Shown here: piece after piece, positions 50,201 through 53,200 of the stretch
Layout of the letters: every line of letters begins with the position of its first letter
Position numbering within the stretch: the first letter of the stretch is position 1
Source: Escherichia coli
GTDB taxonomy: Bacteria > Pseudomonadota > Gammaproteobacteria > Enterobacterales > Enterobacteriaceae
Assembly: GCF_044324785.1 (NCBI RefSeq)
Contig: NZ_CP172128.1
Reading direction: 5' to 3' (one strand)
Length of the DNA stretch: 64,000 nucleotides
Program-made: the position numbers

Positions 50201-53200
50201 CGTCAGAAACACAAACGCCCCGCAGAGAAAATTCGCCAACATTCTCCTTTTTAATGGCGCGCAATGCATCGCGGCAGGCCCGTTCGGTATGAAAGGCCTG
50301 GCTGTGCACCGCCAGTGTGGGCTGACGGGCATCACCGGAAGAGACATTAAAGGGCGATGAAAGCCAGAAAATCAGTAGCCACATGCGTCACACCTCGTCC
50401 TTTTTATGCGGGTATCTGGACAGAATATTGAGCGCCTGTAATGGCGCTTCATGCATTTCACGGATACAACGGGCATCGGTGATATTTTCCCGGTAATGTG
50501 TGGTTTCCAGCATCATATGATGCATATGGAGCATCCGGGCCAGGGCTGCGCGGAGTTCTTCAATATGTTGTTCATGGGAATGCTGGCGGGGCTGTATCCG
50601 GCAGAGAGGGATAACCTCCACATCATCCGGGTGCGCGCGAAGCCACGCGTCAGTGACTGCAATGTCGTCAGTGTAAAACCATGTGCCGGATGTCCCGTTG
50701 GCCAGAAAACGCATTTTCCAGGCTTCTGGGGTGGCGGTTGTGTTGTTATCTTTCATGGTGCCACCACTCATTCAACAGGCTTAATGCTGTCCAGGCGCAG
50801 TCTGCTCAGACTGTCGTGGCTGCCACAGCGGCGTCCGGTGCTTTTGCTGTAGCACTCCTGCCCCCTGATACACCATGCCGTTGGCGTTTCGTAGAGGCTG
50901 ACACGTCGGGTTTTATCTTTAATGATGAGAAGCCCGGTGTGAGTTTTTGTCTTTTTCATCGGTGGGGTACAAACGCAGAAATTTTGTTGTCATTACATCA
51001 TCAGTTTTAGCCTGCAGAGACGCTGAAAAATCAGCGTTTTCAGACCCTGTTCAGGTTAGTGAATATTCTTGCCTGGCCTTTCGGCAATATCAATCCCCTG
51101 GAGTTGCATGGATATGCCCATACCGTTGACCATGAGGCTGTTTATGGACTGAACACCACATTTCATCATGAGCTCAAAACACAGTGCGCTGAGCATGCCG
51201 AGCGCCTCTTCTGAGGACTGGCAGTGTGTATTCAAAAGAGTATTGAACTGTTTAACGATATCCGGGGTGAGGCACATACTTTGTATTTCGTCTTTCATGA
51301 CTACTCCTTATTTCAGGCATTTTGCATTTTGGGTTAATAACACGAAGCCCGTAGACGGAAAACCTGAGGCGTTCGGATGGGATAATTCCCGGGTATTTTC
51401 CTGTTCCGGATACAAAAAATATAACGGCATGAAAAGGATTGTGGCGGACAGGAAAACAATTAGAATAGCTGCGGGCGCTTGAGGCTGTATGCCGAAAGCG
51501 TTTTGTGGACGGCATGCAGCAGAAAGCCCCAGGCGATCTTTTTATCAATCAACCCAGGGCCCACTGTAATGCCTCAACAACATTATAGTAGCCCGATGAC
51601 GGCCGAAAGGCAATGGAGGGGCTGCGATGCCACAACGAACGTTTTTAATAATGTTAATCGTCGTCTGTGTGACGATACTGTGTTTTGTCTGGATGGTGAG
51701 GGATTCGCTTTGCGGATTTCGTATCGAGCAGGGAAATACGGTGCTTGTGGCAACGTTAGCCTACGAAGTTAAACGTTAACGGGCAACACGGCGGCAGGAC
51801 ATCTGCCGCCGGATTGTTGCGAAGGCTGACCTCAATGCGCCTTGTTTGTCTTTTTTACCGGACGATGGATCCCACTCCTCCTCATCAGTTCGTAGCAGAG
51901 TGTACTCAGCATGGCAAGTGCAGCTTCTGATGATTTACAGTGTGTATTCAGGAGGGTAAGAAATTGTTTAAAAACATCAGGGTTTATACTGGTGCTTTGA
52001 TATTCGTTACTCATAGTATTTCCTTTCAGGTCATTATTACTTCCGGATTTAACATGATGTCTGTAACCATAAAATAATGAACGTGTTCCGGGAGTCCTTG
52101 CCGTGTAGTTTCCCGTAAAAATACTGTTGTGCATTACATGTCATTAGGTGGAAACCGATTGTGGCAGACTGAAAATCGATTAGAATAGCGGCGGGCGCTT
52201 GAGGCTGTATGCTGAAAGCGTTTTGTGGACGGCATGCAGCAGAAAGCCCCAGGCGATTTTTTTATCAATCAACCCAGGGCTCTACTGTAATGCATCGACA
52301 ACATTATAGTAGCCCGATGACGGCCGAAAGGCAATGGAGGGGCTGCGATGCCACAACGAACGTTTTTAATAATGTTAATCGTCGTCTGTGTGACGATACT
52401 GTGTTTTGTCTGGATGGTGAGGGATTCGCTTTGCGGATTCCGTGTCGAGCAGGGAAACACAGTGCTTGTGGCAACGTTAGCCTACGAAGTTAAACGTTAA
52501 CGGGCAACACGGCGGCAGGAAATCTGCCGCCGGATTGTTGCGAAAGCAAACCTCAATGCGCCCTTTTTTACCTGGATTTCTGCAGCGCGTTTCAGCATAG
52601 CATGCAGTTCTGTGCTGATCCTTGCTTCCAGTCGGGCAGTTTGTGTTGCAGATGGCATGATTTGTACTTCCTGAATATACTGAACGGCAAATTGCCGTAT
52701 TGTGCTAATTACAGTCTGATACAGGGACGGCAGACAGGCATTCTGCCTGAAAAGAAAAAGCCGGTTCAGAGAAAACCGGCTGACGGATTACCGTCTAACA
52801 GTTGGTCGCTACCTTACAATACTTCTGCAACAGGCACACCGGCAACTTTTTCCCATTCTTTAACCCGATACCGAATCATCTGCGGGAAACGCTCTTTGTA
52901 CTCATATCCACGTGCAGCCATGGTGTGCATGGTGTTGGCCAGCGTCCTTGCTGAGATGCCGGAGATTTCAAGAGGGATCATCGGCAGACTCACATAGGTG
53001 GTGTGGATTTCCAGCTTGCCGTCTTCAGCAACTGTTCGGGTGAAGTTGTGAATATCCAGACCAATCACATCCATGACATTGTTTGGGTAAATGCGCACAT
53101 ACAGCATGGTGCCGTTTTTAATGTCGATCCCGAAATAGCAACTCTTCGAGAATGACAGTTGCTCGTAATCGCTGGTCGGCGCAAAGGGACTGCTTTCTTT

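Follow-up and report, generated by a model that had tools for sequence, protein, structure and literature searches.

A tandem array of two probably intact pnd modules between trbA and excA of an Escherichia coli plasmid

In a 64,000-nt stretch of Escherichia coli DNA (contig NZ_CP172128.1 of assembly GCF_044324785.1; hereafter the window) we find a locus that is very probably a tandem array of two intact pnd modules, that is, type I toxin-antitoxin (TA) units of the hok/sok family associated with post-segregational killing (PSK); this reading is drawn from sequence comparison and structure prediction. Three small open reading frames (ORFs) on the opposite strand, two of them related and here called A1 and A2 and the third resembling a ribbon-helix-helix (RHH) protein, are most likely bystanders of the pnd array. 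Positions are those of the window, and plasmids and contigs used for comparison are given L numbers where they have to be told apart.

The array is defined by a direct repeat and is bounded on the right by excA:

51431-51847, plus strand: pnd copy 1, a full hok-family transcription unit (repeat, Rfam, Pfam and fold)
52151-52568, plus strand: pnd copy 2, a full hok-family transcription unit (Rfam, ORFs and fold)
52814-53458, minus strand: excA (surface exclusion), right boundary of the locus (ORF; annotation of the 100% identical NZ_CP119729.1)

A repeat finder returned the two units, 417 and 418 nt long and 720-721 bp apart from start to start, as two gapless blocks of 130 nt at 92% and 285 nt at 96% identity, or about 94% overall (94-95%). 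In a pairwise alignment near-identity extends from about 40 nt upstream of GGGCGCTTGAGG through CCTCAATGCGCC, and outside the repeat the flanks of the two copies are only about 50-60% alike. The duplicated hok/pnd-type locus with overlapping mok/pndC-like frames that had been predicted from the sequence is present, and the predicted identity of about 95% holds; the module length given with it, about 330 bp, was too short, the true length being about 417 bp.

We regard both copies as complete because of the repeat geometry, the full Rfam leaders, the Hok/Gef ORFs, the open pndC frames, the fold-back and the predicted antisense genes; four sequence features of the hok/sok family, a toxin ORF, a structured leader, an overlapping frame and a 5'/3' fold-back, were found in each. 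The sok/hok leader model of Rfam (RF01794) was matched over its entire length (positions 1-157 of 157) with 123.4 bits in copy 1 and 119.7 bits in copy 2, against a gathering threshold of 59, and the matches (51473-51629 and 52193-52350), both on the strand of the toxin, run up to the hok AUG. The two Hok ORFs (51627-51779 and 52348-52500) encode 50 aa each, differ by the single substitution I33V (copy 2 has Val-33) and are both annotated as Hok/Gef in RefSeq; Pfam HOK_GEF (PF01848) matched copy 1, the copy scanned, with an E value of 2e-12 over model positions 3-42 of 42. Overlapping frames of the pndC/mok type, which begin within the predicted antisense target of the leader and cross the toxin ORF, are open at 51569-51772 and 52290-52493.

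Beyond the toxin stop codon each copy has a GC-rich stem-loop (51790-51810 in copy 1, 52511-52531 in copy 2) and then an element whose sequence complements nt 1-12 of the RNA (51830-51841 and 52551-52562, respectively). In minimum free energy folds of the full-length RNAs, nt 1-11 pair with nt 359-370 in copy 1 and with nt 360-371 in copy 2; the pairing is that of GGGCGCUUGAGG with CCUCAAUGCGCC, the duplex energies are -20.3 and -23.1 kcal/mol, and the z-scores of the folds against shuffled sequences are -7.0 for copy 1 and -7.3 for copy 2. This 5'/3' fold-back, which is a hallmark of hok-family mRNAs, is predicted in both copies, and the repeat homology stops just beyond its 3' element.

The putative promoters and antisense genes were assigned as follows:

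-35 at 51439-51444, -10 at 51461-51466, +1 at 51473, plus strand: inferred promoter of copy 1 (sequence reading and start of the Rfam model)
-35 at 52159-52164, -10 at 52181-52186, +1 at 52193, plus strand: inferred promoter of copy 2 (sequence reading and start of the Rfam model)
51520-51613, minus strand: predicted antisense gene pndB-1, with -35 TTGCCT at 51613-51608, -10 TACTAT at 51590-51585 (TATAAT at 51587-51582) and a predicted RNA from about 51577 to 51520 (sequence reading, ViennaRNA fold and analogy with Sok)
52240-52334, minus strand: predicted antisense gene pndB-2, with inferred -35 at 52334-52329, -10 at 52311-52306 and RNA from about 52298 to 52240

On the minus strand of both copies TTGCCT is separated by 17 nt from TACTAT, which overlaps TATAAT, and is followed by what ViennaRNA folds into a single-stranded tail, a long hairpin and a U-run, about 58 nt in all. 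The PndB promoter and RNA ends are placed by analogy with Sok, an RNA of 64 nt with an 11-nt 5' tail (PMC1635323). A promoter and terminator scan returned, inside the modules, only chance-level hairpins within the hok ORF.

By homology with hok/sok, whose mechanism is summarised in PMC1635323, and with pnd of R483, each module would hold its stable pnd mRNA untranslatable and closed to antisense binding through the 5'/3' pairing, until slow trimming of the 3' end refolds it into a translatable form. The short-lived PndB would then bind, through its 5' tail, the hairpin that carries the pndC start, blocking translation of pndC and of the coupled pndA, and RNase III would cut the duplex. Upon plasmid loss PndB would decay, and the 50-aa membrane toxin PndA would kill the cell. 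Two copies would supply a double dose of both RNAs, and their antisense recognition may differ as well.

The origin of the second copy can be read from a junction that lies between the two modules:

51865-51866: duplication junction, at which pnd-downstream sequence of the pCT/pO111 type (...ACCGGACGA) is joined to codon 50 of A^Q, an allele of the A gene, with 1 nt of microhomology

A plasmid with one copy, pO111-110512_1 (L010), has both halves of the junction 721 bp apart, as expected of the parent. The three-copy array of NZ_CP027341.1 (L005) contains the identical junction at two places, and the junction is also present in the two-copy plasmids L022 and L023 and in the metagenome contigs L058 and L070. 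With a 60-nt probe spanning the joint, the unbroken junction was detected in 38 PLSDB records and, among 5,426 complete E. coli genomes, in 43 (46 records). Only the counts from this probe are usable for arrays: the 89 records returned by a 2-kb query are inflated, a single module aligning to both copies of the query, and so are the counts of 79 and 103 from a 151-nt junction query, in which the parental arrangement is joined up as two pieces. The plasmids and contigs compared form a series of one (L003, L004, L007, L010), two (the window, L022, L023, L058, L070) and three (L005) copies.

Copy 1 of the window is closest to the modules of pTMSA992 and pCT-like plasmids (98%), and copy 2 to that of CP056818.1 (L007; 98.5%). 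The single module of pTMSA992 (L003) resembles copy 1 in its 5' part and copy 2 at its 3' end, and is the product expected of a crossover between two copies. We infer that one illegitimate event followed by homologous exchange explains the shared junction best. A 721-bp segment, which began at A codon 50, took in the spacer and the complete pnd unit and ended about 24 nt past the 3' fold-back element, would have been duplicated once by illegitimate recombination; homologous recombination within the pnd modules, which are 94-99% identical across lineages, would then have shuffled flanks and alleles and left arrays of one, two or three copies. The left unit (A1 and the pnd allele alpha) resembles the IncK2 plasmid pTMSA992, and the right unit (truncated A^Q, the pnd allele beta and a tacA remnant) resembles CP056818.1, as such shuffling would leave them. 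The 417-bp direct repeats make the array recombinationally labile, which matches the series of one to three copies. Within the library covered by the search, no paper dealt with this array, its junction or its allele composition, and the paper describing IncK2 is silent on pnd.

We also observed a marked contrast in divergence along the locus. The pnd cassette is 94-99% identical between lineages, as against synonymous divergence (dS) of 0.8-2.3 in the A gene and about 50-60% identity between the spacers 51299-51430 and 52015-52150, and identity falls abruptly at the ends of the cassette. It looks as if I-complex plasmids exchange or homogenise the pnd cassette as a whole.

Module alignments of plasmids and metagenome contigs show that variation clusters at the hairpin base and in the hairpin loop with pndC codons 2-3, a variable loop that we estimate to be complementary to the first bases of PndB. 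Five main loop alleles were distinguished:

allele alpha, GCCTCAAC: window copy 1 (target of pndB-1)
allele beta, GCATCGAC: window copy 2 (target of pndB-2)
allele beta', GCATGAAC: L007 and L012
allele gamma, GCCTAGAC: L004, L010 and others
allele delta, GCTTCGAC: IncI1

An account compatible with the structural one, to which it would add a selective reason for the array, is that the copies are kept because their PndB and target-loop alleles differ, so that they act as partly orthogonal addiction modules. We consider this unlikely, together with its corollary that a plasmid with alpha and beta would resist the PndB of a competitor and still kill cells that keep a single-allele competitor. The two copies do differ at four positions (three substitutions and one indel) within the 18-nt core that would pair with the predicted 5' tail of PndB, although about 55 nt of complementarity persist between non-cognate pairs. 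Predicted duplexes with the first 11 nt of the tail have energies of -15.6 to -18.2 kcal/mol when the pair is cognate and -7.0 to -10.9 kcal/mol when alpha and beta are crossed; the 5' end of PndB is itself a prediction, however, and a start 3-6 nt further in would put most of the variable bases outside the RNA.

Among 53 unique modules the 18-nt segment is the richest in haplotypes (7 against a median of 3 for the B/O/K/Z type), with Fisher p values of 0.046 for the B/O/K/Z type and 0.012 for the IncI1 type, but the enrichment is modest and the pooled modules give p 0.26. All five main alleles fit GC[C/A/T]T[C/G/A][A/G]AC, which keeps a U-N-purine core while neighbouring bases vary, and the same variants recur on backbones of IncI1 and B/O/K/Z type. 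Other unpaired positions vary too (the loop at 51800-51802, and 51813-51829), so that relaxed constraint on loops would explain the pattern equally well, and the search pattern fixed the loop flanks, which biases the variation towards the gap between them. Every 721-bp array seen is hetero-allelic: alpha/beta, gamma/beta/alpha (NZ_CP027341.1) or a beta'-like allele with beta. Such arrays are, however, expected by chance about 20% of the time from the allele frequencies, they share ancestry, and diverged repeats are simply more stable against recombinational collapse.

The model for a hetero-allelic reading is zorO-orzO/zorP-orzP of E. coli O157:H7, likewise a pair of tandem, closely similar type I loci, in which 3 nt at the 5' end of the small RNA (sRNA) can set which toxin mRNA is repressed (PMC3919570). 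That pair differs from the array in its unrelated toxin, its divergent, trans-like sRNA with 18 nt of pairing and its chromosomal location, and discrimination between the pnd copies is only predicted. That the loop is a multi-allele specificity determinant, and the arrays sets of two or three modules that cannot be cross-neutralised and give an edge among related, incompatible plasmids, seems to us quite unlikely.

Partial pnd leader fragments of about 160 nt are carried by IncI1-type plasmids (L009 621-778, which is NC_018659.1; L035 at about 14080-14260; L041, L051, L062 and L082). Each includes the promoter and 5' leader of pnd together with the region complementary to PndB, and breaks off just past the -10 of the pndB promoter. 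A fragment of this kind is situated between trbA and finQ (Rfam sok, 76.5 bits), and in some plasmids a further one sits 968 bp downstream of the complete pnd. Direct reading of the alleles in L051 gave GCCTCAA for the trbA-side fragment, GCTTCGA for the intact copy and GCCTAGA for the downstream fragment; the downstream fragment of the other listed IncI1-type contigs also has GCCTAGA, and the trbA-side fragment of L009 has GCCTAGAA with a diverged flank. These fragments may serve as orphan antisense elements or decoys, or they may just be scars of recombination; that those with other loop alleles take part in the same contest between specificities belongs to the reading of the loop as its determinant, and we consider it just as unlikely. 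The 968-bp "arrays" of IncI1-type metagenome contigs were considered as a second, independent duplication and rejected, the second member being the 160-nt leader fragment. Identical pndB sequences were reported for 125 IncI1 plasmids by Kamruzzaman et al. (PMC5330492), as against at least three loop alleles on intact IncI1-type modules in our metagenome sample.

Decay offers a less probable explanation still. If one copy were decaying or non-functional and the array a neutral, transient product of unequal recombination, arrays would be expected to be the minority state that they are (38 of about 480 B/O/K/Z-type records), the copy number to vary, as it does, from 1 to 3, and the system to be dispensable, as pnd is for the stability of pCT (PMC4083329). 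We nevertheless hold this to be very unlikely: every recognised element is kept in both copies, with open ORFs, intact fold-back and Rfam scores of 123 and 120 bits, and each copy is at least 98% identical to the sole module of another plasmid.

Two of the opposite-strand ORFs belong to a protein family that we call A:

51056-51298, minus strand: A1, an intact 80-aa ORF, WP_000650933.1, hypothetical protein (ORF and annotation)
51832-52014, minus strand: A2, a truncated fusion ORF of 60 aa (tblastn, BLAST map and tail comparison)

In IncB/O/K/Z plasmids A1 is what usually stands upstream of pnd, in divergent orientation; the single-copy plasmids pTMSA992, pMTY14697, CP056818.1 and pO111-110512_1 carry the A gene once, in that position and orientation. 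The small opposite-strand ORFs that had been placed just downstream of each hok copy do exist, but the one at 51056-51298 lies upstream of copy 1 and is divergent from it. They had further been called clear paralogs, and A1 and A2 are indeed homologous (60% identity over residues 1-50, E 4e-23) without being equivalent, a full-length protein facing a truncated fusion. Codons 1-50 of A2 (51865-52014) are the 5' part of allele A^Q, with 3 nt differences in 150 nt, and tblastn aligned A2 with the full-length 80-aa A^Q of single-copy plasmids at 96-98% identity over residues 1-50 only. Codons 51-60 and the stop (51832-51864) are read from pnd-downstream sequence that is 100% identical to the 34 nt after pnd in the pCT-like L004. 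A2 has neither the beta-hairpin predicted for the A family nor the C-terminal His that is invariant in it. Because it is cut at codon 50 by the junction, A2 is a by-product of the 721-bp tandem duplication and not an intact co-duplicated partner.

Homologues of A1 are found in 479 PLSDB records, 474 of them at 80% of the length or more, and almost all are conjugative Escherichia or Shigella plasmids. A1 had no match in Pfam or NCBIfam, a search of 5.8 billion proteins returned for the family only enterobacterial "hypothetical protein" entries, and a profile search of 1.84 billion representatives gave 47 matches, many of them fragments. The AlphaFold2 (AF2) model of A1 has a mean confidence (pLDDT) of 70, and Foldseek against the PDB found nothing under E = 3. 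The aligned A-family members and the sampled distant representatives all end in His.

Alleles of A differ by dS of 0.8-2.3 with dN/dS of 0.1-0.25, the adjoining pnd module by 2-6%. A therefore appears to be a separate gene, far older in its alleles than the adjacent pnd and under purifying selection, and A and pnd do not evolve as a single unit. A-family members with no hok leader nearby occur in the IncF plasmid L008 and, by Rfam scan, at the loci of distant members L015-L017. The distant members looked up were P0103, P0109, P0100, P0121 and P0122, and the Rfam scan covered the loci of the first three (L015-L017), those of P0121 and P0122 being L018 and L019. A 50-aa ORF in L016 was considered as a Hok and rejected as not Hok-like. 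A distant homologue lies on the other side of pnd in IncI1 plasmids, where an 83-aa ORF convergent with pnd matched the family hidden Markov model (HMM) with 27 bits and E 1.4e-10 in a single comparison; BLASTP of A1 against this ORF gave no alignment, so the homology is seen only through the HMM.

L009 2421-2672, L013 3421-3672 and L014 516-767, minus strand: IncI1 83-aa A-family ORF (HMM)

The third ORF, on the right flank, had been called RHH-like, and this was borne out:

52497-52658, minus strand: tacA remnant ORF of 53 aa, of which only 52572-52658 (codons 1-29) is tacA, the rest reading through the 3' end of pnd copy 2
52659-52776, minus strand: predicted former tacA promoter and leader region, 92% identical to the sequence upstream of intact tacA in L024/L025 and pointing into the 3' end of pnd copy 2

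It has the N-terminus of a TacA/DUF1778 antitoxin, which is of the RHH type, and matches Pfam TacA1/DUF1778 over positions 1-23 of 80 (E 4.8e-4). Over its first 29 residues it shares 97-100% identity with the start of 93-aa, full-length DUF1778 proteins whose genes lie upstream of a GNAT toxin gene; in the intact loci L024-L028 the GNAT product is 162-166 aa long. At the DNA level 52571-52776 is 92% identical to the promoter and first 29 tacA codons of the E. coli contigs L024 and L025, and this homology stops at GAAATCCAGG, beside the similar AATCAAGG past the pnd 3' end. Just 29 of 93 codons are kept and no GNAT toxin gene lies downstream, where the ORF enters the 3' end of pnd copy 2. The third ORF thus appears to be the stump of a tacA-GNAT operon left by a deletion of about 0.7 kb, and the same stump is found in the single-copy plasmids L003, L007 and L012. 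A reading of the locus as a tacAT system was rejected, only an antitoxin fragment being present without a toxin gene. An intact tacA (93 aa) and GNAT operon convergent with a hok/pnd 3' end was seen in L024 (3001-3920) and L025 (193-1099), an arrangement that is probably the ancestral state of the right flank of the window; contig L024 ends inside the hok module, as expected of a repeat that breaks short-read assemblies.

These findings bear on the proposal that the small proteins are functional partners of Hok, either modulators or a second antitoxin layer, duplicated with it as one composite module, which we regard as highly improbable. In its favour, an A-family gene flanks pnd both in B/O/K/Z plasmids (upstream) and in IncI1 plasmids (downstream and convergent, by the HMM match of 27 bits), and the family is under purifying selection and confined to enterobacterial, plasmid-like contexts. 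The duplicated A copy, however, is cut at codon 50 and has lost its conserved C-terminal half, and the third ORF is a dead tacA fragment without its GNAT toxin. About 1,800 PLSDB records hold most of the pnd module as against 479 with a B/O/K/Z-type A gene, which is absent from about three quarters of the pnd-bearing records, and conversely A-family members occur without a nearby hok leader (L008, L015, L016 and L017). The dS of 0.8-2.3 between A alleles contrasts with the 2-6% divergence of the adjacent pnd, and hok/sok-family systems are self-contained, RNA-regulated modules (PMC1635323). The co-duplicated partner genes of the original prediction accordingly fall away: one is truncated, its intact relative is a separate and older gene, and the RHH-like ORF is a deletion remnant. 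We regard the adjacency of A and pnd as synteny in a region of maintenance genes, where AgrB/dqlB type I loci and hha are found too. Nothing was found to favour a false expansion of the assembly, which has a negligible chance, since the copies differ at about 5% of positions, their flanks differ, and the junction recurs in 38 PLSDB plasmids, 43 complete E. coli genomes and the independent metagenome contigs L058 and L070.

Several points weigh against the reading of the locus as two intact, PSK-active modules flanked by bystanders, or against the history proposed for it. The NCBIfam HokA and Hok models matched at E 1e-18 and 1e-10, but with 66 against 89 and 41 against 73 bits fell under their curated cut-offs, and a simple sigma-70 consensus scan flagged neither the pnd nor the pndB promoter in either copy. 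Deletion of pndACB in the related IncK plasmid pCT left stability unchanged (PMC4083329), and because pndACB is dispensable there, PSK activity in this backbone is not guaranteed. The A neighbourhood is conserved on either side of pnd in the I-complex, so that a functional link to pnd may exist, as far as such synteny goes. For the history of the array, duplication followed by allele exchange and unequal exchange between two plasmids fit equally.

The array lies where pnd is normally found. The 2-kb region is 100% identical to that of the E. coli plasmid pE16-3 (NZ_CP119729.1), typed IncK2/Z, and to that of several further IncK2/Z, MPF_I conjugative plasmids from chickens and humans. The gene order is trbC, dsbC-like, trbA, nuclease, HTH (helix-turn-helix) protein, three small ORFs, A1, Hok, Hok, excA, traY, traX and traW. 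A location inside the transfer cluster had been called unexpected; on the contrary, the interval from trbA to excA is the usual home of pnd in I-complex plasmids. At least 80% of the pnd module is present in about 1,800 PLSDB records, the IncI1 examples have the order trbA-finQ-pnd-...-excA, and a paper by Furuya and Komano (1996), to judge by its title as cited in PMC4083329, placed pnd within the R64 transfer region. The benefit of pnd depends on context: it is required for the maintenance of R64 (PMC4083329), and pCT does without it. PndA of R483 is toxic, according to passages of a preprint on hok genes (bioRxiv 10.1101/2025.08.07.668861).

Other TA loci or remnants surround the array. At 48194-48283 (minus strand), just past the start of trbA (46789-48051), there is an Rfam match to AgrB (50.4 bits); relatives have it together with dqlB, a gene for a DinQ-like type I toxin. 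This makes a second type I TA locus, some 3 kb away from the pnd array. A full-model match to the STAXI RNA lies at 38366-38523 (minus strand, 70.4 bits), and a PemI/MazE-like ORF (33485-33766) followed by a PemK/MazF-like ORF (33766-34110), both on the plus strand, form a type II TA pair. The plasmid thus has at least four TA loci or remnants within the window. Rfam also matched the ALIL pseudoknot, the frameshift signal of IS3-family transposases, at 234-350 (107.8 bits) and 34702-34788 (63.8 bits), both on the plus strand, which suggests that IS3-family insertion sequences flank part of the window. In some close relatives (L002, L003 and L022 were compared) a further stretch of about 500 bp separates the tacA remnant from excA; it is absent from the window (52659-52810) and encodes a 69-aa ORF annotated 'HEAT repeat domain-containing protein'.

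The locus is of a known kind, the pnd subgroup of the hok/sok family, and an instance of the hok clusters already described; it is real and largely ordinary. It shares with pnd of the IncI1 plasmids R483 and R64 and the IncB plasmid R16 the position between trbA and excA, about 90% identity to the IncI1 module over 410 nt, a Hok/Gef toxin of 50 aa with an overlapping pndC frame, a fold-back of the 5' and 3' ends and a predicted antisense region. It differs from them in having two tandem copies instead of one, in loop alleles at the pndC start that are not those of IncI1, and in flanks of B/O/K/Z type, with the A gene upstream and the tacA remnant downstream. With hok/sok of R1 it has in common the architecture and presumed mechanism, namely a stable folded mRNA, 3' processing, a mok-like coupling frame and a predicted antisense RNA whose single-stranded 5' tail would recognise a target loop (PMC1635323), whereas it belongs to another Hok subfamily (pnd). 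Intact tacA-tacT resembles the right flank in its promoter and first 29 codons (92% identity at the DNA and 97-100% at the protein level), but with 29 of 93 codons and no toxin gene what is found here is a remnant and not a system.

Local duplication is known to give rise to clusters in which 2-6 hok genes lie no more than 2 kb apart; in the passages of the preprint on them that bear on this point (bioRxiv 10.1101/2025.08.07.668861), 10% of hok genes, and 1.3% of those on Escherichia plasmids, lie in clusters. The locus is one such plasmid cluster, and those passages make no mention of this array, its junction or the differences in loop allele between its copies.

What had looked like a duplicated toxin with partner genes becomes, on this account, a tandem duplication of a classical addiction module. 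The annotation of the three small ORFs can be mended accordingly, the database entries "hypothetical protein" and "antitoxin" including a junction fusion and a tacA stump. The pnd cassette emerges as a recombination-mobile unit whose alleles and copy number (1-3) are shuffled among IncB/O/K/Z plasmids, which spread blaCMY and extended-spectrum beta-lactamase (ESBL) genes in poultry and humans. Where plasmids are to be cured by supplying a single PndB antisense RNA, the premise is that the members of a plasmid group share one pndB sequence (PMC5330492). The finding that an IncK2/Z plasmid can have two or three pnd copies, differing in loop allele, bears on such curing. Should the loop alleles prove to be specificity types, type I TA would join the antisense systems, such as ColE1 RNAI and IncFII CopA, in which a few loop nucleotides define competing "immunity" groups.

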